Below are positions 5,802-48,429 of a stretch of 52,929 nt of DNA, one piece after another. The position numbers and the translations under genes are program-made. Source of the stretch: an uncultured Acidimicrobiia bacterium (GTDB lineage Bacteria; Actinomycetota; Acidimicrobiia; Spongiisociales; UBA11373); the NCBI GenBank assembly GCA_964354255.1, contig CAYGYX010000007.1, positions 1-52,929 of the forward strand, given 5' to 3'. Under the pieces are notes generated by a model. That model did not search any database, was not told the origin of the DNA, and worked only from the letters and a program-made list of their open reading frames with translations. Each line of letters opens with the position of its first letter. The first letter of the stretch is position 1.

Positions 5802-6529
5802 TCCTTCCCCCCGCCTGGGGAGAAGGGGAGGCGGCCGACGGGCCTTCCTCGATCGGGCAGGCGGGGCCGTGGAAGGTGAGCCACGCGGTGGTGGCCTTCG
5901 CCGCCGGCCTCGGCGCATCGCTGCTGGCCGCCGTCGCGGTGGCGTCGGGTGGGATCACCTCCTTTGAGGCCTTCGCGGTGGTAGGCCCAGCCCAGGCTCT
6001 GGCCACCATCGCCGTCGTGGCGCTGCTCGGGCGGCTCTCTCGGCCCCGACGGGAGGGCCTCGGCCTCCGCTTCGCCTTGGCCGACGCCTGGGGCCTGTTG
6101 GCGGGGGCCGGGCTGCAGATCGCCCTCTCCCTGGTCCTGTCTCTCGTGGTGGTCGTGTTCTTCAGTGGCGAGGCCCCGGTGCAGGAGGTCGTCCAGGTCG
6201 TTGACGAAGCGGCGGGGCTGGGCACTCGAGTGGCGGTCGTGGCCACCGCCGTGGTCCTCGTCCCGCTGGCGGAGGAACTGGTCTTCCGGGGGATCCTGCT
6301 GCGAGCCCTCGCCCGCCGCTACCCGTCCTGGGTGGCCATCCTCGGGTCGGCGGGCGCCTTCGCCCTGGGGCACCTGCTCGACCCCAACGCCGGCCTGGCG
6401 GTCCCCGCCCTGTTCGTGATGGGACTGGTGCTCGCCCGCCAGGTCCTGGCAAGCGGCCGCCTGGGTGGGGCGGTGGCCATGCACGCCGGCTTCAATCTCC
6501 TTTCCGTGCTGCTCCTGTTCATGGCCTGA
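5798..6529 (+). CDS. CPBP family intramembrane glutamic endopeptidase (CAAX protease/Abi-like)
   Basis: EELVFRG, FALGH and HAGFN motifs; multiple TM helices; GTGA overlap with leuS stop. Confidence 0.88.
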   Translation: MILPPAWGEGEAADGPSSIGQAGPWKVSHAVVAFAAGLGASLLAAVAVASGGITSFEAFAVVGPAQALATIAVVALLGRLSRPRREGLGLRFALADAWGLLAGAGLQIALSLVLSLVVVVFFSGEAPVQEVVQVVDEAAGLGTRVAVVATAVVLVPLAEELVFRGILLRALARRYPSWVAILGSAGAFALGHLLDPNAGLAVPALFVMGLVLARQVLASGRLGGAVAMHAGFNLLSVLLLFMA

Positions 6530-6635
6530 GGCGACGGGATCCGTCGGGCCGGGCCCGGTCGTCACCGAGGCGAGGGTCTTCCACCGGGGCCTCCGGCGTG
6601 ATAGGTGGGAGCCGCCGATCGTGGAGGCTGCCGTC

Positions 6636-7172
6636 GTGGAGCGCCCGCAGTGGATCGCCGCCGCCCTGGTACTGGCGGCCGCCGCCGCGGCCGGCCTCTG
6701 GTACGCCGGGCGCGCCCCGGCCGCGCCTCCGGTGGCGGTCGACCCGGACGGCGGGGAGGGGCGGGTCATCACCGTGCACGTCGCCGGGGCCGTGCGGTCG
6801 CCGGGGGTGGTCGAGGTGGCCGCCGACTGCCGGGTGGGCGACGCCATCGCCGCCGCCGGTGGGGTGCTTCCCGACGCCGACCTGGCCCGGGTCAACCTGG
6901 CGGCCCCGCTCGCCGACGGGCAGCAGGTGCTGGTGCCGGCCACCTCGGCGGATGCGGCGGGCGCCGTCGCCGGGGATGGCCGGGTGCGCATCAACCTCGC
7001 CGGCGTCGACGAACTGGAGGCGCTGCCTGGGGTGGGGCCGGTGCTCGCCGAGCGCATCGTGGCCTACCGCGAGGAGCACGGGTCCTTCTCCGTGGTGGAG
7101 GACCTGCTCGATGTGCCCGGCATCGGTGAGGCGAAGCTGGCGGCCCTCCGGGAGGCGGTGCTGGTGCCCTGA
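6636..7172 (+). CDS. comEA: ComEA family DNA-binding/uptake protein (TM, SLBB, HhH)
   Basis: ITVHVAGAVRSPGVV SLBB, VNLAAPLADGQQVLVP, RININ..LEALPGVGPVLAERI..GIGEAKL HhH; GGAGG SD before GTG 6636. Confidence 0.92.
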   Translation: MERPQWIAAALVLAAAAAAGLWYAGRAPAAPPVAVDPDGGEGRVITVHVAGAVRSPGVVEVAADCRVGDAIAAAGGVLPDADLARVNLAAPLADGQQVLVPATSADAAGAVAGDGRVRINLAGVDELEALPGVGPVLAERIVAYREEHGSFSVVEDLLDVPGIGEAKLAALREAVLVP

Positions 7173-7312
7173 GAAGCCGCGCCGGCCGACCGGCACCCGG
7201 TGGCCAGGTCGGCCTTTCTCCCGTCGGCCGGCTTGCCGATCGTCTGCGGCTGCCGTCGGGGCCCGGGGCTGCCGCCTGCGGTGCAGCCGTCCTCGCCTGG
7301 GCGGGAGCGACG

Positions 7313-9376
7313 GTGGGGGCTCGTTCGTTCCCCGCCGCGCTCGGCCTGGCCGGCGCCGCCGCCTGGTGTCGGGCCCGCCTGCGGCGAGGGGCCTGGCCGG
7401 TGGTGGCGGCCGTGGTCGTTGCCGCCGCGGTGTCGGGGGCCCTGGCCGGCGAGCGGGAGCGGGCCACCCTGGAGGCGGTGGTGCCGTCGGGCAGGCTGAC
7501 CGTGGCCGGCCTCGCCGCCGACGATGCGGTGCCCCTTGCCGAAGGGGAGCGCTTCACCCTGCAGCCGAGCCACCTAGTGGTCGAGGGGCGTTGGCGATCC
7601 TGGCCGGGGCCGCGGCTGGCGGTGACCGGGCCCGCGACGGGGGTGGCAGCCGGGGAGCGGGTGCTGGTCACGGGTGCCGCCATCGCCGATTCGTTCCCGA
7701 CCGGTTCCGGGGTGGTGGCCGGGCGCCTCGCCGCCCGATCGGTGGAGCGCCTCGGCCCCGCCGCCGATCCCCTGTTCGCTACGGGGAACCTCCTGCGGCG
7801 CCGGGTGCTGGAGGGAGTGGCCGAATTCGAGGACCGCCCGGCCGCCGCCCTGCTACTGGGCTTCCTCATCGGCGACGAGACCGGCCTCCCCGACCCGGAT
7901 AGGGAGGCGCTGCGCCTGTCCGGCCTGAGCCACTTCGTGGCGGTGTCGGGCAGCAACGTGGCGCTCTTCCTCACCGCCTGGTGGCTGGCCTCCGGCCCGT
8001 TGGGATGGGGCCCGCGCCGCCGGGCCCTGCTCGGCCTGATCGGCCTGGCGGTGTTCGTGGTGGTGACCCGGTGGGAGCCGTCGGTGGTGCGGGCGGCCAC
8101 CATGGCCGGCCTCGTGCTCGGGGGGCGGCTGGCCGGGGTTGCGCTCGACGGCTGGGCGGCCTTGGGCGGGGCGGTCACCCTGCTCCTGCTGGTCTCCGGC
8201 GACCTGGCCGGCGACCCCGGGTTCCAGCTCTCGGTGGCCGCCACCGCCGGGGTGCTCGCCGGGAGTCGGCTCTTCGCGGGGCGACGGCCCCGGTGGGCCT
8301 GGACGGCGCTGGGGGCGACCGTCTCCGCCCAGGCGGCGGTGGCCCCCTTGCTGCTGGTCCTATTTGGGTCGGTCCCCCTCTTCGCCCCGCTCACCAATGT
8401 GGCTGCGGCCCCCCTGGTGGCCCTCTCCACCGCCACCGGTGGGGTGGGGGTGGTGATCGGGGCCACCCCCCTCACCGGGGTTGCCCTGCTGGCGGCCGAT
8501 GCCGTGCTCGGGGTGGCCCACTTCGGCCGGGACCTGCCGCAGCTGGGATGGGCCGGGTTGCTGGCGGTCGCCGCCGCCGGGGCCCTGGCCACGCTGCCCC
8601 GGCTACGGCCGCTCGTGGCCCTGGGCGGGGTGCTGGCGGTGGGGGCGGCCACCGTGCTGCCCGCTCATCTCCCCTCGCATCCCGAAGTCGTCTTCCTCGA
8701 CGTGGGCCAGGGCGACGCCATCTTGCTGCGCGGCCCCTCCGGCGAGGTGGTGCTGGTGGATGGTGGGCCGGACCCGGCCGTCCTCCGCCGCGCCCTCCTG
8801 GGGAGGGGCATCCGGCGCATCGACCTGCTGGTGGCCACCCACGGCCACGAGGATCACCTGGCCGGCCTGGCCGGCATCGGGCAGTGGGCGGTGGTGGGCC
8901 GGATGTGGCATTCCGGCGACGGGGGAGAGGCGCTGGAGTCGCTGGTCGCGGAGATGGAGGCGGCGGGGGTGCCGGTGGAGGTGCCCGGCCCGGGGTGGGA
9001 AGCGGAGGTGGGTGCTTTCCATCTCGAGGTGCTCGGCCCGGTGCGGCGCTATGCCTCCCCCAACGACGGCTCCTTGGTGCTGCTGGTGACCGCGGCCGGG
9101 GCCACGGTGCTGCTCCCCGGGGACATTGAGGCCATCGCCCAGGCCGACCTGGGCCCGCTGGCGGCCGACGTGCTCAAGGTCCCTCACCAGGGGGCAGCCA
9201 CCAGCGACCTCCGCTGGCTGGCAGCCTGCGCCCCGCAAGTGGCGGTGATCATCGTCGGCCCCAACGACTTCGGCCACCCTGCTGTGGAGGTGGTAGCGGC
9301 CCTGGAGGCGGCCGGGGCGGCGGTGCGCCGCACCGACCTGGAAGGGGATGTGGTCATCACGCTGGGGAGAGGGTGA
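7313..9376 (+). CDS. comEC: ComEC/Rec2 competence channel with C-terminal metallo-beta-lactamase domain
   Basis: GLSHFVAVSGSNV, SVVRAATM, FQLSV..T, FLDVGQGDA, THGHEDH; the frame stays open and hydrophobic upstream, so the true start may be earlier. Confidence 0.93.
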   Translation: MGARSFPAALGLAGAAAWCRARLRRGAWPVVAAVVVAAAVSGALAGERERATLEAVVPSGRLTVAGLAADDAVPLAEGERFTLQPSHLVVEGRWRSWPGPRLAVTGPATGVAAGERVLVTGAAIADSFPTGSGVVAGRLAARSVERLGPAADPLFATGNLLRRRVLEGVAEFEDRPAAALLLGFLIGDETGLPDPDREALRLSGLSHFVAVSGSNVALFLTAWWLASGPLGWGPRRRALLGLIGLAVFVVVTRWEPSVVRAATMAGLVLGGRLAGVALDGWAALGGAVTLLLLVSGDLAGDPGFQLSVAATAGVLAGSRLFAGRRPRWAWTALGATVSAQAAVAPLLLVLFGSVPLFAPLTNVAAAPLVALSTATGGVGVVIGATPLTGVALLAADAVLGVAHFGRDLPQLGWAGLLAVAAAGALATLPRLRPLVALGGVLAVGAATVLPAHLPSHPEVVFLDVGQGDAILLRGPSGEVVLVDGGPDPAVLRRALLGRGIRRIDLLVATHGHEDHLAGLAGIGQWAVVGRMWHSGDGGEALESLVAEMEAAGVPVEVPGPGWEAEVGAFHLEVLGPVRRYASPNDGSLVLLVTAAGATVLLPGDIEAIAQADLGPLAADVLKVPHQGAATSDLRWLAACAPQVAVIIVGPNDFGHPAVEVVAALEAAGAAVRRTDLEGDVVITLGRG

Positions 9377-9443
9377 GGTGCGATCCTGAGGAGCAGCGCC
9401 GCCGCCCGGAGCACCTGTCACCGGGCCGCGCTACGGTGCCGCC

Positions 9444-10451
9444 GTGGGCACCGCCGTTCTCCTCGTGGCCGGCGCCGGAGATGCCGGCCCGGGCGATCGC
9501 GACGAGATCCTGCGTCGCGGCTATGCGGCTCTCGAGGAGTCCGGCGTCGACGGCATCGACCGGGTCGACGTCCCTGCCCGCGGTGTGTCCACCGACGATG
9601 GCGAGGGGGCTCTGCGGCCCGAGGTCGAGGGCATCGTGCCCGCCCTCCAGAGCGGCTCGCTGTTCGGGGGGCGGCGCGGCCTGCTGGTGGTCGACGCCCA
9701 GAACCTGCTCAAGGGCGAGGCCGAGGTGGTCGCCGCATTGGTGGCCGGCCTCGACGCCGCCACCGCCGTGGTTTGTTTCGTGTCGGCCGGCTCCCTCCCC
9801 GCCCCGCTGGGCCGGGTGGTCGATCGCGTGGCCGAGAAGGTCACGGTCAGCAAACTGCGCGAGCGGGACGCGGCCGACTGGCTGGGCGGGGCGGCCCGCG
9901 AGCGCCGGGTGAACCTCACCGCCGGGGCCGCTGTCGCCCTGGTACAGCGCTTCGGGTCGGACATTGCCTCCCTCGGGCAAGCGCTCGACCAATTGGCCAT
10001 GGTCGAGGGGCCCATCACCGAGGCCGAGGTCGCCTCCCGGTTCCGCAACCGGCCCGACGAGCCCATGTGGCACTACGCCGACGCGGTAGGGGAGGGTGAC
10101 ATTGCCGCCGCGTTGCGGCGCCTCACCGACTTCCTAACGCACGGGCACCCCCTGCAGCTGCTGGCCTTCCTCGAGAACGACCTGCGTCGGCGGGCCATGG
10201 CACTGGCCGCCCCCGACCCGGCCACCTTCGCTGAGTGGGCGGGGGGCAGCGCGGCGCAGTTCCCCATGCAGAAAGCCTGGAAGGCGCGCAGCCGGACATC
10301 GCCGGAGCGCCTGTGCCGGGCACTAGACGCCCTGGCCCGCGCCGACCTGCAGCTGAAGACCATGCCGGAGGCCACTCACCGCCTCACCATGGAGCGGCTC
10401 ACCGTGGCTCTCTGCCAGTGGTACGGGGGCCGGGGCACGCGCCGGCGCTGA
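9444..10451 (+). CDS. holA: DNA polymerase III subunit delta
   Basis: SGSLFGGRR; clamp-loader-like helical pattern ending ALARADLQLK; canonical comEC-holA-rpsT synteny. Confidence 0.85.
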   Translation: MGTAVLLVAGAGDAGPGDRDEILRRGYAALEESGVDGIDRVDVPARGVSTDDGEGALRPEVEGIVPALQSGSLFGGRRGLLVVDAQNLLKGEAEVVAALVAGLDAATAVVCFVSAGSLPAPLGRVVDRVAEKVTVSKLRERDAADWLGGAARERRVNLTAGAAVALVQRFGSDIASLGQALDQLAMVEGPITEAEVASRFRNRPDEPMWHYADAVGEGDIAAALRRLTDFLTHGHPLQLLAFLENDLRRRAMALAAPDPATFAEWAGGSAAQFPMQKAWKARSRTSPERLCRALDALARADLQLKTMPEATHRLTMERLTVALCQWYGGRGTRRR

Positions 10452-10461
10452 GGCGAGCCCC

Positions 10462-10941
10462 TCAGGCGCCGAAGGGGCGCACCGACACCACTTCCACGGT
10501 GAAGGTGCCGCCGGGGGCTCGGCAGTCCACCTTGTCCCCGGGACGGGCGCCGAGCAGGGCCCGGCCCAGGGGCCCGGAGGGGCTGGCCAGCTGCTGGCCG
10601 GGGACCCGGTTCTCAGGGGTAGCCACCAGGTACTCGGTCTCCTGGCCGTCCTCGCGCACGGTCACCAGGGAGCCGACCTCGACGACTTCGGTGCTCTCCG
10701 CGACGCGGATCTCGGCGGTCTTCAGCAAGTAGCGGATGCGGCGGATGCGGGCCTCCATGAGGCCCTGCTCTTCCTTGGCCGCCTCGTAGTCGGCGTTCTC
10801 GCTGATGTCGCCGTGGGCGCGAGCTTCGGCCAAACGCTCCTCGAGCCGGTTTCGACCGACCGTGGTGAGGCGCTCTAGCTCCTCTTGCAGCTGGCGATGG
10901 GCGGCGGGAGTGAGCCAGGTGGGCTCAGGCTCTGCGGGCAT
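10462..10941 (-). CDS. greA: Transcription elongation factor GreA
   Basis: WLTPAAHRQLQEEL, ARAHGDISENADYEAAK, SPSGPLGRALLG. Confidence 0.93.
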   Translation of the reverse strand: MPAEPEPTWLTPAAHRQLQEELERLTTVGRNRLEERLAEARAHGDISENADYEAAKEEQGLMEARIRRIRYLLKTAEIRVAESTEVVEVGSLVTVREDGQETEYLVATPENRVPGQQLASPSGPLGRALLGARPGDKVDCRAPGGTFTVEVVSVRPFGA

Positions 10942-10956
10942 GGGGACCGGTGGGGG

Positions 10957-11223
10957 TCAACCCAGGCGCGACCGGACCCGCCGGGTGAGGCGGGACATGC
11001 GGCGGGCGGCCGTGCGGCGGTGCAGGGTTCCCTTGGCGGCGGCCGTGTCGAGGCGTTGCTGGGCGAGGCGAAGGGCGGCGGCGGCTGCTTCGGCGTCACC
11101 GGTGTCGGCGGCGGCGAGCGCCGTCTTGGCCCGCGTCTTCAGCTCGGACCGGACTGCCTGGTTGCGGCGCCGGCGAGCCTCGTTCTGGCGGTTGCGCTTG
11201 ATCTGAGAACGGATGTTGGCCAT
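10957..11223 (-). CDS. rpsT: 30S ribosomal protein S20
   Basis: MANIRSQIKRNRQN, AAAKGTLHRRTAARRMSRL. Confidence 0.97.
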   Translation of the reverse strand: MANIRSQIKRNRQNEARRRRNQAVRSELKTRAKTALAAADTGDAEAAAAALRLAQQRLDTAAAKGTLHRRTAARRMSRLTRRVRSRLG

Positions 11224-11255
11224 GAAGAAGCGGCTTCTCGGTGGGGGACGGGTGG

Positions 11256-11285
11256 AGGTTAGCAGGGGGCCGTGGGCGGTACAAT
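11256..11285. promoter_or_regulatory. Back-to-back -10 boxes for rpsT (TAACCT, minus, 11256-11261) and lepA (TACAAT, plus, 11280-11285)
   Basis: Two TANNNT hexamers in the short divergent intergenic region. Confidence 0.55.
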
Positions 11286-11315
11286 GCCGGCCCTTCGCCC
11301 CTACGGAGCGTCTTG

Positions 11316-13104
<1,789 letters not shown>

Positions 13105-40278: not shown

Positions 40279-40488
40279 ATGATCACCAAGACCACGATCT
40301 ACCTGCCCGATGATCTCAAGCGGGGGGTGGAGCGGGAGGCCCGGCGCCGCGGCGAATCGGAGGCCGAGGTGATCCGCCGGGCGATCGCCGCCGCCGTGGC
40401 CCGGCCCCGCCCGCGCAACGGGATCATCGATGCCGAGCCCTTCGCCGGCCGGGTCGAGGAAATGCTCGGGGGGTTCGGCGAGCGGTGA
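40279..40488 (+). CDS. vapB: RHH (CopG-type) VapB antitoxin, VapB26-like
   Basis: KTTIYLPDDLK..EAEVIRRAI..GFGER; GTGA overlap with PIN gene. Confidence 0.9.
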   Translation: MITKTTIYLPDDLKRGVEREARRRGESEAEVIRRAIAAAVARPRPRNGIIDAEPFAGRVEEMLGGFGER

Positions 40489-40895
40489 TCATCGCCGATA
40501 CCAGCGGGTTGCTCGCCCTGTTCAACCGGCGCGAGCCTGCCCACGTGGCGGTGCGGGCCCACGTCGAGGCAGCGGGCGAGGAGCTCGTGGTCTCGCCCTA
40601 CGTCCTCGCCGAACTCGACTGCCTCCTGGCCACCCGGGTTGGCGGCGATGGTGAGCTGGCCGTGCTTCGAGAGCTGATCGGCGGCGCCTATGTTCTGGCG
40701 AACCTCGAGGCCGAGGAGGTGGCGCGGGCCGTGGAGATAACCGAGCGCTACCGCGACCTGGGGATCGGTATCGCCGACGCCTCATTGGTGGTTCTCGCCG
40801 AGCGGTTCCGGACCAGGACGACCCTCACCCTCGACCGCCGCCGGTTCGAGGTGGTCAGACCCATCGGCGGCGGGCGGTTCAAGATCGTCCCGTGA
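40485..40895 (+). CDS. vapC: PIN-domain VapC toxin, VapC26-like
   Basis: IADTSG, SPYVLAELD, IGIADAS, TLTLDRR acidic tetrad; RPIGGGRF..P C-terminus. Confidence 0.92.
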   Translation: MIIADTSGLLALFNRREPAHVAVRAHVEAAGEELVVSPYVLAELDCLLATRVGGDGELAVLRELIGGAYVLANLEAEEVARAVEITERYRDLGIGIADASLVVLAERFRTRTTLTLDRRRFEVVRPIGGGRFKIVP

Positions 40896-41906: not shown

Positions 41907-41983
41907 TGTCACCTCTGGGTGGTCGACGGCCGGTATGCCCTGGCCGGCAGGTTAGGTGGGGCGCAGGCGGGCCCGGCGATGGT

Positions 41984-42694
41984 TCAGCCCTGGATGAGGC
42001 CGATGGCCACCGGTTGCTGTTCGGACGAGACCACCCCGCCGGCCACTTCCACGGTGAGGGCGAAGCCGGCTACCTCTCCCGATACGTGGAAGGCAGCCAC
42101 TTCCGGGGCCGGCCCGAGCACCCCGGCGGAGATCACTCGCTCGCCGACGATGGCCCACAGCTGGTAGGTCCCGTCGCCGGGAAGAGCCGGCGCCTCGGGG
42201 GTGAGGACGTACCCGGTGCCGTCGGCGGCGAGCACTACCTCGGCCTGCACCTCTCCGGACAGGGGGATGATCTGCGACCCTTCCTGCCCCCGGGCCTCGG
42301 CCGCGGCCACAGCCAGCGGGTTCTCCTCGAAGTCGGTGATGCGGGTGTGCTGGTGGACGGCCACAACCGCCAGCACGACCCCCGCCGCGAGGCTGGTGGT
42401 CGCCACGGCGGCACTGAGCCAGCGACGCCACCAGGATGGGTGGAGCGCCGGCCGGGCGGGCGCCAGTGGCCCGGTGGCCGCGGCGATCCTGGTCCAAAGG
42501 GTGGCCGGTGCCCGATCGGCCGGGTCGACCGCTCCCTCGGCGAGGGCAGCCGCCACCGCCAAGTCGAGTCCGGCGGCCTGTGCCAGTGACGGGTCCGAAG
42601 CTAGGGCAGCCTCGACCCGGCGGCGCTCCTCGAGGCTCAGCGCGTCGAGCGCGTAGGCACCGAGCAGGCTCTCGACATCCTCGCGATCGATCAT
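41984..42694 (-). CDS. rskA: Anti-sigma factor RskA-like
   Basis: LLGAYALDAL N-terminal ASD, single TM, TYQLWAI..SAGVL..FALTVEVAGG RskA C-terminal domain. Confidence 0.85.
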   Translation of the reverse strand: MIDREDVESLLGAYALDALSLEERRRVEAALASDPSLAQAAGLDLAVAAALAEGAVDPADRAPATLWTRIAAATGPLAPARPALHPSWWRRWLSAAVATTSLAAGVVLAVVAVHQHTRITDFEENPLAVAAAEARGQEGSQIIPLSGEVQAEVVLAADGTGYVLTPEAPALPGDGTYQLWAIVGERVISAGVLGPAPEVAAFHVSGEVAGFALTVEVAGGVVSSEQQPVAIGLIQG

Positions 42695-43245
42695 GTCAGT
42701 CCTTCTTGCAGCAGCGGCCCTCGCAGGCGCTCCAGGCCCCGCCGTATGCGGCTCTTCACAGTGCCCTCGGGCTCACCCAGGTGGCGGGCCACCTCCTGGT
42801 AGGTCAGGCCGCCGTAGAAGGCGAGCATCACCGCGTCCCGTTCTGCGACGGGCAGTCCCCGGAGAGCGGAACGAACTCGCTCCGAGCGGATCGAGGACCA
42901 CACCTCTTGTTCGGGGCCGGGGACCTGGTCGGATGCCTGCGATTGCTCTCGTTCCTCGCGCGCCCGTCGGGCGGTCTCGGTCCGGAGGAGGTCAACCGCC
43001 CTGCCGTGCGCGTCACGCAGCAGGAAGGCCCGCAGCGGGGCGCGCTGTGGGTCGAAGCGGCCCGGATCGCGCCAGAAGCGGACGAACACCTCCTGGGTGA
43101 CCTCCTCGGCGAGTCCCGGGTTGCGCAGAACCCGGCGGGCCAGCCCCAGCACGGCCCCCGCGTGACGTTGATAGACGACCTCGAGCGCCCCGTGGTCCCC
43201 GGCGGCCGCCGCCGCGGCGAGGGCTTCATCGCTGAGTGAGGCCAC
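42691..43245 (-). CDS. sigK: ECF sigma factor, SigK-like
   Basis: AEEVTQEVF..W..FDPQR, AHGRAVD, LAFYGGLTYQEVA, GTVKSRIRRGL; coupled to rskA. Confidence 0.82.
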   Translation of the reverse strand: MASLSDEALAAAAAAGDHGALEVVYQRHAGAVLGLARRVLRNPGLAEEVTQEVFVRFWRDPGRFDPQRAPLRAFLLRDAHGRAVDLLRTETARRAREEREQSQASDQVPGPEQEVWSSIRSERVRSALRGLPVAERDAVMLAFYGGLTYQEVARHLGEPEGTVKSRIRRGLERLRGPLLQEGLT

Positions 43246-43286
43246 GGGCTCTGTGATAGCAGCGTGCCGTGTCTTAGGGAAACCGA

Positions 43287-43311
43287 CATCCGGCGGCAGC
43301 CTGGCTCCGAA
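43287..43311 (+). promoter_or_regulatory. Putative SigK-type promoter for the DUF4397-sortase operon
   Basis: CATCC-N15-CCGAA, resembling the SigK -35/-10 consensus as recalled. Confidence 0.55.
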
Positions 43312-43344
43312 TGACGGGTGTCCCTAACAACAAGGAGATCGGAA

Positions 43345-44154
43345 ATGCGCAAGTTGATGTTGATGTTGGCAGTGGGCGCCCTGGTGGCGTTCGCCGCCCT
43401 CCCCGCTTCGGCGCAGGAAGGCGCCCAGGTGTCCGTGATCCACGGCATCCCCGGGCTGACCGTCGACGTGTTCGTCAACGGTGAGCTCACGCTGGAGGGC
43501 TTCGAGCCCGGCGACGTCGCCGGCCCGCTCACCCTGCCGGCCGGCGACTACGAACTGGCCATTGCCCCCACCGGGGCCGGCATCGATGCGGCGGTCCTCA
43601 CCGGCACTGCCTCGGTGACCGACGGGCTGAACGCCTCGATCGCCGCCTACCTGAGCGAGATGGGCGAGCCCGGCATCGCCATCTTCGTGAATGACACCTC
43701 GGCCATCGCCGCCGGGCAGTCCCGCCTGGTGGTGCGCCACATCGCCGCTGCCCCGACGGTCGACATCCTGCTGGCGGACGGCACGCCGCTCTTCGAGGGC
43801 GTCACCAACTTCGCCAACGGCGAGCCGTTCGAGGGGCAGGCCGACGTCCCGGCCGGCGCCTACGACGTGCGCATTGCCCCGGCCGGCGCCGGGGTGGACG
43901 CCGCGGTGTTCTCGGCCGACGGCGTCGAGCTGCCCGAGGGCACGGCCCGCATCGTCTACGCCACCGGCAGCCTCGCCGAAGGCTCCTTCGGCCTGGTGAT
44001 CCAGGACATCGCCGGCCTGGGGGAGACCCCCGGCGGAGTTCCCACCGGCGACCTGACCTCCAGCGGCCTGCCGCTCTGGATGTTCCTGGCCGGCGGGTTC
44101 GCCCTGCTCATGCTGGCGGCGGTGCCCGTGGTGGCCGTCCGCCGGAGCCGGTGA
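43345..44154 (+). CDS. DUF4397 surface protein with VPTG sorting signal
   Basis: Signal peptide (ASA-Q), two repeats (VSVIHGIPGLTVDVFVNG; LVVRHIAAAPTVDILLADG), GGVPTG + TM + RRSR tail; AAGGAG SD. Confidence 0.85.
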   Translation: MRKLMLMLAVGALVAFAALPASAQEGAQVSVIHGIPGLTVDVFVNGELTLEGFEPGDVAGPLTLPAGDYELAIAPTGAGIDAAVLTGTASVTDGLNASIAAYLSEMGEPGIAIFVNDTSAIAAGQSRLVVRHIAAAPTVDILLADGTPLFEGVTNFANGEPFEGQADVPAGAYDVRIAPAGAGVDAAVFSADGVELPEGTARIVYATGSLAEGSFGLVIQDIAGLGETPGGVPTGDLTSSGLPLWMFLAGGFALLMLAAVPVVAVRRSR

Positions 44155-45014
44155 CCCGACTCCACCGACGTACGGGCTCGGGGAAGCCGCTTCGGCGGCT
44201 TCCCCGGCCGCGTCTCCTCTCCCTCACCCTGGGCACTGCCGGGGTGGTGGTGATCGTCGCCGGCCTCTTCCTCCAGGGCTCCACACCGGCGGTCGACCCC
44301 ACGCCGCCGCAGGGGTACGGATCCGTTGTCGGCCCGGCACCGGAACCCGCTTCGGCTTCCTCGACCGGGAACTCCTCCGCAGACAGCCCGGATGGCGGCC
44401 TCCTCCCCGACGCCTCGGCCACCACGGTGCCGCCACCCGAAGACGACCGGACACCCGCCCCCCTGGTGCCGGTAGCCCCGGGAAGCCTCGAGGATTTGCC
44501 GGGCGAGGACCGGGCCGAGCCGACGCGCCTGGTCATCCCCGCCCTGGATATCGACGCTCCCATCCAGGCCGTAGGTGTCACCGGCGGGGAGATGGAGGTG
44601 CCGCCGCGGGCCGACCTGGTGGCCTGGTACCGCTTCGGGCCGATCCCCGGGGCACCCGGCTCGGCGGTGCTCGCCGCCCACGTCTCGTGGGGCGGCGAGC
44701 GGGGGGCGTTCTACCACCTCCGCGACCTTCCCCGGGGGGCGGAGGTCGAAGTGCGGTTCGCCGATGGCTCAGTGCGCCGCTTTCGCTCGGTGGCGCTCGC
44801 CGCCTACGACAAGAGCGACCTCCCGGTGGAGCGGATCTTCGAGCGGCGGGGCGAACCGGTACTGACGTTGATCACCTGCGGAGGCGCCTTCAACCAATCG
44901 CTGCACAGTTTCGAGCAGAACGTGGTGGCCTCCGCGGTGCCGGCCGAGCAGGCAGACGCCGAGGAGGCGGACGCCGCAGAGCCGACGGTCGGCGACGCGC
45001 CGGGCCCCTCCTAG
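44151..45014 (+). CDS. Class F sortase
   Basis: PTRLVIPALDIDAPI, VAWY, GSAVLAAHV, LTLITCGG, NVVASA; N-terminal TM; GTGA overlap with substrate gene. Confidence 0.9.
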   Translation: MTRLHRRTGSGKPLRRLPRPRLLSLTLGTAGVVVIVAGLFLQGSTPAVDPTPPQGYGSVVGPAPEPASASSTGNSSADSPDGGLLPDASATTVPPPEDDRTPAPLVPVAPGSLEDLPGEDRAEPTRLVIPALDIDAPIQAVGVTGGEMEVPPRADLVAWYRFGPIPGAPGSAVLAAHVSWGGERGAFYHLRDLPRGAEVEVRFADGSVRRFRSVALAAYDKSDLPVERIFERRGEPVLTLITCGGAFNQSLHSFEQNVVASAVPAEQADAEEADAAEPTVGDAPGPS

Positions 45015-45056
45015 CCGGCCGGCCGATTTGCCGGCGGTCCAGTGGCGTTGTCCCGC

Positions 45057-46322
45057 CTATGCCGGCCGCTGCGCCCAGAAGCGCTCGGCGGCCGCCTTCA
45101 TTGCCTCGACGAGAGGCAGGGGCTTGCCGCTCAGGTAGCGGATGAGGGCACCGCCGCCGGTGCTGACCACGTCGATGCGGCTGGTGTCGACGAACCGCTT
45201 GGCGCTGGAGACGGTGTCGCCGCCGCCGATGACGGTGTGGGCGGAGGTGTCGGCCACTGCCTGCCAGAGCGCCCGGGTGCCGGCCTGGGTGTTGGGGTTC
45301 TCATAGGCCCCGGGCGGCCCGTTCACGAAGACGGTGGCGGCCTGCCCGATCATCTCCGAGTAGGCGGCGATGGTCTGGGCCCCGATGTCGAGGAGCAGGT
45401 GCTCGGTGGGCAGGTCCTGCACCGCCACCTCGATTCGCTTCCCGTCCACCTCCATTGCCAGGTCGGTGGGCAGGTGGATGATGCCCGGGTAGGCGGCGAG
45501 GTGTGTCCTGGCCTCCTCGACGAAGCCGGCGAGGTTGCGGTCGCGGATGAAGCGCTCCGAAGCCTCGCCCAGCGAGACCCCGCGGGCGAGGAGGAACACG
45601 TGGCCGGTGACCCCGGCGGTGAGCACCACGTCGGCGGTGCCGTCGGCCAGCACCTTGCCCAGCATGCCGAAGGCGTCGGAGATCTTCAGGCCGCCCAGCA
45701 AGTAGAGGCAGGGCCGCCGCGGGGCATCGGCCACCGCGGTGAGGGCATCGATCTCCGCCGTCAACAGCCTTCCGGCCGCCGTCGGCAGCACCTCCTGGAA
45801 GGCGACCATCGACGGGGAGGCGCGATGGGCGGCGGCGAAAGCGTCGTTCACGTAGTAGTCGAACAGGGGGGCCAGGTTGCGTACCAGGTAGGTGCCCGCC
45901 ATCTGCTGCGGGGTGAGCTTGACGTCCCGCTCGAAGGTGGACACCTCCTCGGTCAGGTAGCGCAGGTTGTCGAGCAGCAGGATCTCCCCGCTCCCCAGGT
46001 CGGCGATCGCTCGACGCGCCGCCGGCCCGGCCACGTCGTCGATGAAGCCGACCGGCCGCCCCAGCCGCTCGGCCAGGGCGGTGGCGTGCTGGGACAGGCC
46101 GGTGAGGTTGTGGTAGTCGAGGGTGTCGCCCTGGTGGGCGATGAGCACCAGCCGGGCGCCCCGGTCGGCCAGGTCGCGGATGGTGGGCAGGCTCTTGTCG
46201 ATCCGGTTGAAGTCGGCCAGCAGGCCGGTCTGGCGGTCGATGGGGGAGTTGATGTCGACTCGCAGCAGCACCGCCTGGCCGGCGACCTCCAGGTCGTCGA
46301 TCGAGGGGATGCGGTCGGCCAT
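45057..46322 (-). CDS. pgk: Phosphoglycerate kinase family protein, archaeal-type
   Basis: LRVDINSP, LLDNLRY, NDAFAAAHR, GGLKISD, NGPPGAYE, GGGDT, STGGGA; ATG overlaps gap stop (TGATG). Confidence 0.88.
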   Translation of the reverse strand: MADRIPSIDDLEVAGQAVLLRVDINSPIDRQTGLLADFNRIDKSLPTIRDLADRGARLVLIAHQGDTLDYHNLTGLSQHATALAERLGRPVGFIDDVAGPAARRAIADLGSGEILLLDNLRYLTEEVSTFERDVKLTPQQMAGTYLVRNLAPLFDYYVNDAFAAAHRASPSMVAFQEVLPTAAGRLLTAEIDALTAVADAPRRPCLYLLGGLKISDAFGMLGKVLADGTADVVLTAGVTGHVFLLARGVSLGEASERFIRDRNLAGFVEEARTHLAAYPGIIHLPTDLAMEVDGKRIEVAVQDLPTEHLLLDIGAQTIAAYSEMIGQAATVFVNGPPGAYENPNTQAGTRALWQAVADTSAHTVIGGGDTVSSAKRFVDTSRIDVVSTGGGALIRYLSGKPLPLVEAMKAAAERFWAQRPA

Positions 46323-47341
46323 CAGGCCATTCCCAGGTACCGGTTGGTCAGCGCCACCGCCTCCGCCCCATCGGTCTGCATGGGGATGGACGCCCGGATG
46401 GCGTCGATCGTCTCGGGGATGACCACCGACTCCTGGGGGATGTTGATGGCGAACATGAGGTCGTCGCCGGAGAAGCCGATGGCCTCCTCCCATACCCCGG
46501 TCTCGTACATGTCGCCGCGGGGGTGGCCCAGGAAGCGGGCGTAGTTGAACAGCGAGGTGTTGGTGGTGAACCCGTCGGCCATGCGGACCACTCGCAGTCG
46601 CGGATGGGCCCGGAAGACCTCGAGCGCCTCCTCCTTGGTGGGCTTGCGCTTGAGGCTGGCTACCAGGGTGATGATGTGCCCGTGGGTGACCGGGGTGTGG
46701 ACCAGGATCCCGGTGGCGTCCACGTGCGGCATGATGTGCATCAGGTCCTTGGCCTGGTGGTTGGGGATCGGCTCGATCAGCAGGCAGTCGACCAGCCCGC
46801 GGTGCGTGTCGCCCGGGTCGGCGACCCGGCGGATGATGGTGATCGCCACCTTGGTCACCCCGAAGGACCGGTCTAGGGCGTCGACCGCCCGGACCAGGCC
46901 GGTGGTGTTGCAGGAGGTCAGCTTCAGGTAGTCCTTGCCCACGCCCTGGGCGTAGTTGGCGTACCCGTGGAAGAAGACGTCGGCGATCTCCCCCTTCTCC
47001 CCGCCTTGGAAGACGGCCTTGAGCCCGGCGGCGACGTAGAGCTCCTTGTTCTTCGCCCCGACCCCTCCCGGCGCGGAGTCGAGCATGATGTCGACGCTGC
47101 CGATCAGGTCGGCGAAGGAGCCCGACACCGGGATCCCGGCCTTCTCGAGGCGGTCGGCGGCGTCGGGGGCGGCGGCGAACATCCGGTAGGGCATGCCCCG
47201 CTCCTTCAGGGCTTGCACCGCCAGGGTGGGTGCCACGTCGGCGACGCCGACCAGCTCCATGTCCTCCTGGCGGGCCACGCCGTCCGCCAGGCGCTGCCCG
47301 ATCACTCCGAACCCGGCTACCCCGACCCGAACCTTCGTCAT
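46322..47341 (-). CDS. gap: Type II (archaeal-type) phosphorylating glyceraldehyde-3-phosphate dehydrogenase
   Basis: GVAGFGVIGQRLAD, FQGGEK, SCNTTGL (not the bacterial SCTTNCL), IRRVADP, QESVVIPETIDAIRA. Confidence 0.9.
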   Translation of the reverse strand: MTKVRVGVAGFGVIGQRLADGVARQEDMELVGVADVAPTLAVQALKERGMPYRMFAAAPDAADRLEKAGIPVSGSFADLIGSVDIMLDSAPGGVGAKNKELYVAAGLKAVFQGGEKGEIADVFFHGYANYAQGVGKDYLKLTSCNTTGLVRAVDALDRSFGVTKVAITIIRRVADPGDTHRGLVDCLLIEPIPNHQAKDLMHIMPHVDATGILVHTPVTHGHIITLVASLKRKPTKEEALEVFRAHPRLRVVRMADGFTTNTSLFNYARFLGHPRGDMYETGVWEEAIGFSGDDLMFAINIPQESVVIPETIDAIRASIPMQTDGAEAVALTNRYLGMA

Positions 47342-47418
47342 CGTTCCTCCTCGTGCCTGCAGGCTGCTGCTCGTTGTCCGGCCCTTCCCAGACCGGTCGG
47401 GAGATCCCTATCGGGGGG

Positions 47419-48429
47419 TCACGGACTGTACTGGGCCACCGGCTGGGGCTGCCCGGTCTCGGCCGACCGGACGACCGCCTCGAGGATGGCCACGTTGCCC
47501 AACCTATGCTGGTTGGTGAAGCGGTAGGCGACGCGGCCGGCGACTGCGTCGGCCCAGTGCTCGTAGCCGGCTTTGACCGGGCTGGCTGGTTCGAAGTCGT
47601 GGCGGGTCTGCTGAGTGTCGCCGCGCCGGCGGACGTAGAACTGGGTGGTGCCGCCCGGGTCAACGTGCTGGGTCTCACGGGCCTCCGCCCAGGCGTGGCT
47701 CCCGAACACGGCGAATCGGGCGTAGTCGGGGGTGGCCGACAGGGCAGCGATGTGCCCGGTGGTGCCGTCGCCGAAACGCAGGTGCACCGAGACCACGTCG
47801 CCGGTGGGGATGACCAGGATGCGTTTGGCGGTGTGAGCCTGCACCTCGAGCACCGGCTCCACCAGGCTGAGCATCATGTCGCTGAGGTGGACCCCCATGC
47901 CGGTCCAGCCGGCGGCGGGGGCTTCTTCCTTGCTGCCCCGCCAGTTGTCGGCCGCCATGTTGAGCCAGCGGTCGTGGCTCCAGTGGGCTTCCATGTGAAG
48001 GATGGTGCCCAGCTCGCCCGAGTCGGCCATCCGCTTGATCTCCTCCCAGGCGGGCTCGAAGCGCCGCTCGTGGCCGATGCCCAGCACAATGCCCGCCCGG
48101 TCGCAGGCCTCGATCATCTTCCGGGCGCTGTCCACCATCAGGGCCAGGGGCTTCTCGCAGAAGATCTGTTTGCCGGCGGCGGCGGCCTGCAGCACCGCGA
48201 CCTCATGGAGGCGGTGGGGGATGGTGAGGATGACCGCCTCGATCGCCGGGTCGTCCAGCACCTGTTGGAAGTCGGCCAGCACCGGCAGACCGTGGGCATC
48301 CCGGTACCGCTGGGCGACCTCGGGCGACGGGTCGACCCCGCAGACGATCTCGATCTTCTCGCTGCCCTTGAGGGCCTTGGTGACCTGGCTTCCCCACCAG
48401 CCGAGCCCGACCTGGGCCGTCTTCAGCAT
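47419..48429 (-). CDS. Gfo/Idh/MocA family oxidoreductase
   Basis: VGLGWWG, IFCEKPLA, GHERRFEP, GVHLSD. Confidence 0.9.
   Translation of the reverse strand: MLKTAQVGLGWWGSQVTKALKGSEKIEIVCGVDPSPEVAQRYRDAHGLPVLADFQQVLDDPAIEAVILTIPHRLHEVAVLQAAAAGKQIFCEKPLALMVDSARKMIEACDRAGIVLGIGHERRFEPAWEEIKRMADSGELGTILHMEAHWSHDRWLNMAADNWRGSKEEAPAAGWTGMGVHLSDMMLSLVEPVLEVQAHTAKRILVIPTGDVVSVHLRFGDGTTGHIAALSATPDYARFAVFGSHAWAEARETQHVDPGGTTQFYVRRRGDTQQTRHDFEPASPVKAGYEHWADAVAGRVAYRFTNQHRLGNVAILEAVVRSAETGQPQPVAQYSP

Follow-up and report, generated by a model that had tools for sequence, protein, structure and literature searches.

We analyzed a 52.9-kb stretch of DNA from an uncultured Acidimicrobiia bacterium (contig CAYGYX010000007.1), which we call the window. 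It contains three co-oriented genes predicted to encode an oxidoreductase of the Gfo/Idh/MocA family, a glyceraldehyde-3-phosphate dehydrogenase (GAPDH) of type II, and an archaeal-type homologue of phosphoglycerate kinase (PGK). An earlier note on this DNA had described this arrangement with its motifs, a TGATG overlap, and a 77-nt gap, and the open reading frames (ORFs) agree with that description exactly. The features of the locus are as follows.

47419-48429, minus strand: Gfo/Idh/MocA NAD(P)-dependent oxidoreductase, 336 aa, the first of the three genes, of the sugar or cyclitol dehydrogenase type
47342-47418, minus strand: spacer of 77 nt that separates the first two genes and includes, 6 nt 5' of the GAPDH start, the ribosome-binding site GGAGGA
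46322-47341, minus strand: type II GAPDH, 339 aa, with the motifs FQGGEK and SCNTTG; proposed D-malate-semialdehyde dehydrogenase (phosphorylating, NAD+)
45057-46322, minus strand: archaeal-type PGK homologue, 421 aa, with the motif RVDINSP; proposed D-malyl-phosphate:ADP phosphotransferase

The GAPDH stop codon (TGA, 46324-46322) and the PGK start codon (ATG, 46322-46320) have one base in common, an overlap from which translational coupling is predicted. An AAGGAG Shine-Dalgarno sequence lies 5' of the Gfo start codon. The G+C content at third codon positions (GC3) of the three genes is 0.90-0.93 in a genome of 71% G+C and their codon log-odds scores are 105-167, leading us to regard all three ORFs as real genes. 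Genes were called by codon log-odds; an 873-aa shadow ORF at the PGK gene misleads calling by the longest ORF or by a GC3 filter. No Rfam family, riboswitch, or notable promoter-like or terminator-like site was found around the block, including the 77-nt spacer. The earlier note had seen no tpi or other glycolytic gene with the block. When the whole 52.9 kb was searched by tblastn, using E. coli GapA and TpiA and Thermotoga PGK as queries, it showed neither a class I GAPDH nor triosephosphate isomerase (TIM) nor a second PGK.

A separate bacterial clade and its residue changes

The GAPDH passes both equivalog profiles for the type II enzyme, with 391 bits for NF003251 (cut-off 185) and 299 bits for TIGR01546 (cut-off 232.9). 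By contrast, the class I profile TIGR01534 scores 18.7 bits vs a cut-off of 367. Matches to the solved structures 2czc, 1cf2, 2yyy, and 1b7g range from 225 to 258 bits. The PGK matches PF00162 over its full length (345 bits, profile positions 1-379 of 379), and its best solved relative is the Pyrococcus horikoshii enzyme 2cun (261 bits vs 186 bits for the best bacterial PGK, 1vpe), which identifies it as archaeal-type by sequence similarity. The archaeal family type assigned earlier to both enzymes is thus borne out by the profile scores and the closeness to 2cun, as is the actinobacterial host, the nearest public locus (L001) being from an Acidimicrobiia metagenome-assembled genome (MAG).

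An exact-sequence look-up returned no identical record of the window GAPDH. Database relatives of this protein number more than 4000; identity to it is 76-96% in the top 120, of which the named ones are from Acidimicrobiia or Actinomycetota. In one-genome-per-species data, relatives at 67-80% identity occur in Dehalococcoidales, Anaerolineae, Clostridia, Treponema, Sphaerochaetaceae, Atribacterota, and Planctomycetota, the Clostridia including Dorea sp. D27, Clostridium magnum, Christensenellaceae, and Lachnospiraceae. The comparison set comprised 81 sequences from bacteria and 82 from archaea, four of the latter being taken from the PDB and 78 fetched. The bacterial type II GAPDHs (GAPDH-II) share at least 60% identity with each other (median 70%) across six or more phyla and no more than 45% with any archaeal sequence, and the two groups were split in 100 of 100 neighbor-joining bootstraps. 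Among 1.84 billion representatives at 50% identity, only two of full length belong to the clade (498 and 458 bits), and the next full-length one scores 276 bits at 40% identity. This gap in score marks the bacterial clade off as discrete. These comparisons place the window GAPDH in a tight, separate bacterial clade and argue against a stray archaeal gene.

Two further 50%-identity representatives (P0249 and P0252; 40-41% identity) have motifs of the clade, such as a FHGYANY-like motif and Asp at position 33, and have lost the catalytic Cys, with LPQPSLVG and ISNYNING in place of TSCNTTG. They could be pseudo-enzymes, or their function could be new.

The earlier note had called for a phylogeny of both proteins, which gave a clear answer for the GAPDH and a poor one for the PGK. 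In the PGK tree, the bacterial set was separated from ten non-clade PGKs (nine archaeal-type and one bacterial) in 49 of 100 bootstraps, so that monophyly is not resolved, and identity within the clade is as low as 38%, making this phylogeny less clean than that of the GAPDH. In an archaeal MAG (L146, 1070-2239), the PGK beside a type II GAPDH is 44% identical to the Thermotoga enzyme and 33% to archaeal PGK; judged from these identities, an exchange between the domains would here have run the other way.

Horizontal acquisition of the block, which had been suggested, is not supported as a recent event. The G+C content of the block (0.70) is that of the window, giving no sign of recent acquisition, the pair is present in hundreds of Acidimicrobiia relatives at 76-96% identity, and the bacterial copies form one clade apart from Archaea. 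We rejected recent transfer on the grounds of this composition and of how deep the clade goes in Acidimicrobiia.

A review of the Methanothermus fervidus GAPDH structure provides a guide to residue function: Lys33 gives use of NADP(H), a trait of an anabolic enzyme, a second anion site is formed by Ser139, Asn141, Arg167, His193, and His194, the catalytic residue of archaeal GAPDH is Cys140 with His219 as general base, and Arg167/Arg168 form the site for the C3 phosphate of glyceraldehyde 3-phosphate (GAP) (PMC12041015). The bacterial clade keeps the equivalents of Cys140 (TSCNTTGL, aligned with archaeal SCNTT) and His219 (THGH, aligned with archaeal LMHxH); Ser139-Cys140-Asn141-Thr142 is retained, as is the Arg167/Arg168 site (IRRVADP), which is compatible with a phosphate or a carboxylate. 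Lys33, present in 99% of the archaeal sequences, is replaced by Asp in 100% of the bacterial clade (Asp35 in the window). The classic signature of NAD use is an acidic residue where beta-2 ends, and from this alignment the change appears to mark a switch from NADP to NAD. His194 is the only altered residue of the second anion site, Ser139, Asn141, Arg167, and His193 being kept; it is His in all 82 archaeal sequences and Gln in all 81 bacterial ones (Gln196 in the window). Further changes in the clade are LMHxH to HGHII, AVHQES to INIPQES, and RVVSC to KLTSC. Each of the listed changes is shared by 93-100% of the clade, and the archaeal residues at these sites are 91-100% conserved.

In PGK, the 3-phosphate of 3-phosphoglycerate (3-PG) is bound by Arg65, Arg122, and Arg170 together with His62 (pig numbering, PMC7729029). 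The Arg65 equivalent is Arg or Lys in eight of eight archaeal PGKs and is basic in none of the 75 pair-linked bacterial PGKs, which have Asp (40), Ser (27), or Gly (8) at this position (Asp66 in the window). The equivalents of His62, Arg122, and Arg170 are kept. So are the ligands of the glycerate carboxyl and hydroxyl, Asp23, Asn25, and Arg38, represented by RVDINSP and an Arg40 equivalent in 73-75 of the 75. A clade-specific insertion with Phe-Glu follows the Arg122 loop. The two window proteins show every one of these clade signatures.

Gene neighborhoods of the pair in other bacteria

A neighborhood survey of bacterial GAPDH-II, as the earlier note had proposed, showed that PGK follows consistently and that malate, transketolase, and Iol genes recur. 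Genes were called, clustered, and counted in 80 bacterial loci, the best 80 of about 600 candidates per collection scan. PGK lay directly after GAPDH-II in the same orientation in 76 of these, and loci with the pair were from Acidimicrobiia, Chloroflexota, Clostridia, Spirochaetota, Atribacterota, and Planctomycetota. No TIM-like sequence was found in bacterial loci L001-L082, and tpi was never adjacent to the pair. In a Saccharofermentanales MAG (L054), a class I GAPDH with 53% identity to E. coli GapA lies directly upstream of the type II GAPDH-PGK pair (4596-5654 and 6001-7014), so the two GAPDH classes can coexist.

A malate-handling gene was found within 6 kb of the pair in 47 loci. A nickel-dependent malate racemase (LarAH6, NF052593; 583 bits vs a cut-off of 500, and 408 bits to Mar2, PDB 6d6z) occurred in 29 loci, an NAD(P) malic enzyme in 17, and in 15 an Iso_dh protein nearest to tartrate/D-malate dehydrogenase (314 bits to 3flk vs 263 bits to M. 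tuberculosis LeuB). The racemase and the D-malate-dehydrogenase-like gene never occurred together (0/80), consistent with alternative outlets for one product. Split transketolase genes were present in about 25 loci and Iol genes in 13, encoding IolD (903 bits, cut-off 715), IolE (414 bits, cut-off 290), and IolB-like and IolG-like proteins. Transketolase or E1 genes plus malate racemase/malic enzyme or D-malate dehydrogenase genes stood beside the pair in 52 of the 80 loci and in Acidimicrobiia loci L174-L185.

In several loci (L018, L032, L060, and L075), the pair stood in one contiguous, co-oriented run with Iol genes, transketolase, and a gene for malate handling, and no candidates for IolC, IolJ, or IolA lay between the genes of these runs. 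The order in L060 is IolE, IolB, IolD, IolG, IolG, GAPDH-II, PGK, malate racemase, malic enzyme, transketolase-N, and transketolase-C. In C. magnum, an ABC transporter and a malic enzyme come first, followed by GAPDH-II, PGK, transketolase, IolB, and IolD. Two Bacillota loci (L024 and L027) have acetoin-dehydrogenase-type E1ab/E2/E3 genes instead of transketolase. Dehalococcoidales loci contain genes of the two-subunit class I fumarase/tartrate-dehydratase type, and some pair loci contain TRAP carboxylate transporters.

A scan with a transketolase from Acidimicrobiia as the query revealed a conserved module in which a [C_GCAxxG] gene and a cupin gene precede transketolase-N and transketolase-C, followed by genes for a short-chain dehydrogenase/reductase (SDR) and a metallo-beta-lactamase-fold protein; D-malate dehydrogenase, GAPDH-II, and PGK genes lay directly upstream of the transketolase module in seven loci. 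In three other loci (L233-L235, approximately 7000-11400), transketolase-N/C and D-malate-dehydrogenase-like genes are followed by an aldehyde dehydrogenase (ALDH) gene and the pair is missing; L233 has IolG-like and IolE-like genes nearby. The gene order suggests that this non-phosphorylating ALDH fills the functional place of the pair.

Some loci depart from this pattern. D-malate-dehydrogenase-like, PGK-homologue, and transketolase-N/C genes occur with no GAPDH-II between them in L182, L200, and L219 (approximately 4600-8800). One of these MAGs, MFD05684.bin.2.275, has GAPDH-II on another contig (L030) without a PGK, so the pair can be split. Contigs with Acidimicrobiia-type clusters were also filed under Saprospiraceae (L008/L176) and Kiloniellales (L199) MAGs, which is likely mis-binning.

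Proposed reactions and their alternatives

We lean toward the view that the pair is an ATP-conserving aldehyde-oxidation module that acts on a carboxylate analogue of GAP and diverged from the archaeal glycolytic/gluconeogenic couple. The gene structure, family membership, separate clade, residue changes, and neighborhoods were observed directly; from them we infer the substrate, direction, and ATP yield. A thiamine diphosphate (ThDP)-dependent enzyme, mostly split transketolase and in a few loci an acetoin-dehydrogenase-type E1, would cleave an alpha-hydroxy-ketone acid sugar to yield D-malate semialdehyde (3-hydroxy-4-oxobutanoate). The clearest candidate for this sugar would be 5-dehydro-2-deoxy-D-gluconate, formed from myo-inositol via IolG/E/D/B. 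The GAPDH-II homologue would convert D-malate semialdehyde, NAD+, and phosphate to D-malyl 1-phosphate via a thioester on the conserved Cys, and the PGK homologue would transfer the phosphate to ADP, giving D-malate and ATP. D-malate would then be converted to pyruvate either by a decarboxylating D-malate/tartrate dehydrogenase or by the nickel-dependent malate racemase and malic enzyme. In the window organism, only the GAPDH-II and PGK steps are encoded together, and the other steps would be encoded elsewhere in the genome.

The reasoning behind this proposal draws on textbook carbohydrate chemistry. Substrates of transketolase must be ketoses that have a CH2OH-CO- head and are D-threo at C3/C4, a requirement that the IolB product 5-dehydro-2-deoxy-D-gluconate meets when read from its C6 end. 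Removal of two carbons leaves OHC-CHOH-CH2-COO-, the D-configured malate semialdehyde. This compound is D-GAP with a carboxylate replacing CH2-O-phosphate, and D-malyl 1-phosphate is the corresponding analogue of 1,3-bisphosphoglycerate (1,3-BPG). Having one phosphate-binding Arg fewer in PGK would suit this anionic tail, which is shorter and singly charged. The outlet enzymes needed if D-malate is the product are the neighbors observed.

The type II GAPDH of the Clostridial species P. thermosuccinogenes was inactive on GAP with either NAD+ or NADP+, and both type I enzymes of this organism were active (PMC6543838). The ends encoded by the primers in that study, (M)VKVGVA... (its last residue, Ala, is Asn in all archaeal sequences) and ...MGKWK, both match the bacterial clade; the placement of the enzyme in the clade uses these primer-encoded termini only, and a search with the reverse primer gave one exact match, a chance one, in Cohnella. 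The earlier suggestion of an accessory pathway, probably not core glycolysis, in which oxidation leads through an acyl phosphate to ATP is also the best reading in our analysis, given this assay, the residue changes, and the gene neighborhoods in about 170 related loci. The substrates that had been listed for screening (GAP, erythrose-4-P, sulfolactaldehyde, lactaldehyde, and glyceraldehyde) omit D-malate semialdehyde, the one to which the gene context points.

The proposed module resembles several known systems in part. It shares its families and folds with the gluconeogenic type II GAPDH/PGK couple of archaea (M. fervidus 1cf2; P. horikoshii 2czc and 2cun), along with the SCNTT Cys, the catalytic His, the Arg-Arg site, and the HQG motif typical of archaeal PGKs, and the two genes are at times adjacent in archaea also. 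Unlike that couple, the bacterial pair lacks the NADP lysine, His194, and the Arg65 equivalent, has the PGK insertion, branches apart at no more than 45% identity, and has malate, transketolase, and inositol genes as neighbors. The gene order also differs, being gap then pgk here, whereas pgk is upstream of gap in five or six of the eight archaeal loci with a PGK within 3 kb of gap (seven of those PGKs being archaeal-type). The bacterial gap-pgk-tpi operon likewise has GAPDH followed by PGK in one transcription unit and couples a phosphorylating oxidation to substrate-level phosphorylation, but it has the other GAPDH class, a tpi gene, and no archaeal-type PGK.

On the side of the product, the carnitine route of Acinetobacter baumannii has been demonstrated to run from malic semialdehyde to D-malate and on to pyruvate and CO2 without phosphorylation (PMC11353897). 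The intermediate and product that we propose are the same, as is an outlet of the DmlA/tartrate-dehydrogenase family, and the transketolase-D-malate dehydrogenase-ALDH set in L233-L235 resembles this route. The A. baumannii route differs in that oxidation is by an ALDH-superfamily enzyme without ATP formation and the aldehyde is split off carnitine, whereas here a ThDP enzyme would cleave a keto-acid sugar to form it. Classical myo-inositol catabolism (IolG-E-D-B-C-J-A) shares with the pair operons of Clostridia and Spirochaetota the IolD and IolE proteins, which score over their cut-offs, and IolB-like and IolG-like proteins. In these operons, however, transketolase, GAPDH-II, PGK, and malate racemase with malic enzyme take the place of the kinase IolC, the aldolase IolJ, and IolA, so we infer that such a route would gain ATP where the classical route spends it. 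None of the IolB/D/E/G genes of the pair operons occurs in the window.

In the literature searched, malyl phosphate itself appears only in engineered pathways, which differ in regiochemistry and use an engineered malate kinase and malate semialdehyde dehydrogenase (PMC5481828, PMC12104201). As in these and in the natural aspartokinase/Asd pair, a kinase and a GAPDH-superfamily dehydrogenase would interconvert a C4-dicarboxylate acyl-phosphate and a semialdehyde. Those systems act on the distal (C4) carboxyl of L-malate or aspartate, run in the reductive direction, and use kinases of the amino-acid-kinase fold, whereas the proposed chemistry would involve the carboxyl next to the hydroxyl, the D-isomer, a PGK-fold kinase, and the oxidative direction.

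We see an even chance that the bacterial branch uses D-malate semialdehyde and D-malyl phosphate as a new substrate pair, and hence carries out an unrecognized substrate-level phosphorylation within a transketolase-dependent, ATP-yielding branch of inositol or acid-sugar catabolism that replaces IolC/IolJ/IolA. A full-text literature search, with subscription-only papers outside its scope, found no function for the bacterial clade and no transketolase/malyl-phosphate branch of inositol catabolism. The carriers of this branch include gut Clostridia, Treponema, Chloroflexota, and soil Acidimicrobiia. Metabolic reconstructions count the pair as glycolysis or gluconeogenesis, which would be wrong for many MAGs if it acts on D-malate semialdehyde. 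In that case the metabolic map would gain an acyl-phosphate metabolite and an ATP-forming reaction, both of them new, anaerobic use of inositol by gut Clostridia and spirochaetes would have an energetically better route, and the pair would be a natural template for malyl-phosphate chemistry so far built by protein engineering.

Several observations weigh against D-malate semialdehyde as the substrate. The assay with GAP was done on cell extract (PMC6543838). The GAPDH passes the type II equivalog cut-offs and retains Cys, His, and both Arg residues for the GAP phosphate, and the PGK retains its 3-PG ligands other than the Arg65 equivalent, the loss of which is not known to abolish PGK activity by itself in model enzymes. 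Judged by these residues, the two enzymes may still act on GAP and 1,3-BPG. The D-malate-dehydrogenase-like protein also scores over the actinobacterial LeuB cut-off (409.5 vs 393). No transketolase, racemase, malic enzyme, or D-malate dehydrogenase is encoded in the window, 27 of the 80 loci have none of these nearby, and in some Acidimicrobiia loci the pair is amid housekeeping genes, for example serA, purA, and purB. The neighborhood counts are also not phylogenetically independent. In a scan by exact 8-mers, a transketolase module from the genome of the closest relative (CAWCKE01) was not among the 80 best loci.

The first rival explanation is that the two enzymes are a true GAPDH and PGK acting on GAP and 1,3-BPG, either as trunk glycolysis in place of the bacterial gap-pgk or as an extra isozyme set, for example for a transketolase-linked GAP pool. 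The profile scores and the retained catalytic and ligand residues of both proteins are what this predicts; it also fits that the pair is very common in Acidimicrobiia and at times amid housekeeping genes, that enolase is near the pair in L017/L025, and that the window has no other gap or pgk. We nevertheless consider it unlikely, since the Arg65 equivalent is gone in 75 of 75 PGKs, Lys33 and His194 are replaced clade-wide, tpi is never adjacent, a class I GAPDH coexists in L054, and in P. thermosuccinogenes the two type I enzymes were active on GAP but the type II enzyme was not. In addition, the recurrent malate racemase, malic enzyme, and D-malate dehydrogenase have no role downstream of 3-PG, and a non-phosphorylating ALDH replaces the pair beside transketolase and D-malate dehydrogenase in L233-L235. 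A role as relics or as moonlighting proteins without a metabolic function, as suggested for the P. thermosuccinogenes enzyme, would accommodate the one published assay without activity and the divergent relatives without the catalytic Cys (P0249 and P0252). It is very improbable in light of the strong conservation (at least 60% identity across phyla), the intact catalytic residues, the conserved operon structure with translational coupling to PGK, and the consistent metabolic neighborhoods.

The same chemistry could instead operate on another anionic hydroxy-aldehyde, namely tartrate semialdehyde (from 5-keto-D-gluconate, with tartrate as the product), tartronate semialdehyde, or sulfolactaldehyde. 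Transketolase is known to cleave 5-keto-gluconate to tartrate semialdehyde, the Iso_dh neighbor is nearest to a tartrate dehydrogenase/decarboxylase (3flk), the Dehalococcoidales loci have fumarase/tartrate-dehydratase-type genes, and TRAP carboxylate transporters occur in some loci. Malate racemases epimerize tartrate too (PMC11770544). Most transketolase modules of Acidimicrobiia and Chloroflexota have cupin, SDR, and metallo-beta-lactamase-fold genes in place of Iol genes, suggesting that the feeding sugar there is not inositol, and tartrate semialdehyde is a real alternative especially in these two groups, where the module is mostly without Iol genes. Against such substrates, the malic enzyme in 17 loci and a racemase over the LarAH6 malate-racemase cut-off point to malate, and the IolB/D/E/G clusters lead specifically to a 2-deoxy acid and hence to malate semialdehyde. 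Sulfonate-pathway genes do not recur (TauE was confined to three Sphaerochaetaceae-type loci, where it lies on the opposite strand), and we ranked sulfolactaldehyde low for this reason. As a group, these other aldehydes have, in our judgment, a rather low probability.

The oxidoreductase gene and other features of the window

The Gfo protein matches PF01408 (80 bits), PF22725 (72 bits), and PF02894 (44 bits). Its best NCBIfam match is IolG (TIGR04380) at 106 bits, well below the cut-off of 355, and the protein is thus not an IolG equivalog. Its best PDB matches are 3db2, a putative oxidoreductase, and glucose-fructose oxidoreductase, and it would presumably serve in an early sugar or cyclitol oxidation.

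The coupling of this gene to the pair that had been suggested did not extend beyond the closest relatives. Apart from the window itself, L001 (96%) and L163 (86%) are the only loci where a Gfo gene of this type adjoins the pair, and this adjacency was seen neither in L164 (87%) nor in 78 other loci. Orthologues with 76-89% identity are frequent in Acidimicrobiia. The distance from them to a cluster with the pair or its partner genes is 9-10 kb in L168 and L169. In L165-L167 (approximately 4000-11000), orthologues with 76-81% identity have a conserved neighborhood with no pair nearby, lying directly after genes for a three-subunit molybdenum hydroxylase of the xanthine dehydrogenase family and a glyoxalase-like protein and followed by genes for a phosphoenolpyruvate-utilizing (Rph-like) protein, an ALDH, and E1ab. 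The conserved unit is the GAPDH-II/PGK pair, and the Gfo gene is not part of it.

In L001, the GAPDH has 96% amino acid identity to that of the window and the block has 89% nucleotide identity. The earlier placement of the block in a variable region holds only for what lies downstream of it. The block itself is syntenic with L001 and L163, but a 3.16-kb segment of four genes (41914-45070) directly downstream of the window PGK is not in L001, where a gene for a luciferase-like oxidoreductase adjoins PGK directly. The genes of this segment are as follows.

41984-42694: anti-sigma factor, RskA-type
42691-43245: extracytoplasmic function (ECF) sigma factor
43345-44154: DUF4397 secreted protein
44244-45014: sortase

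The remainder of the window contains actinobacterial housekeeping genes, including leuS, lepA, hrcA, dnaJ, era, recO, glyS, dnaG, and genes for sigma factors. ARAGORN called a 91-nt tRNA-Arg(CCT) at 8155-8245 inside a ComEC-like ORF (7313-9376); it is below the Rfam gathering score and is probably a false positive of very G+C-rich sequence. At 40279-40895, genes for a ribbon-helix-helix protein (69 aa) and a PIN-domain protein (136 aa) overlap at their stop and start codons and have the look of a VapBC-type toxin-antitoxin pair.

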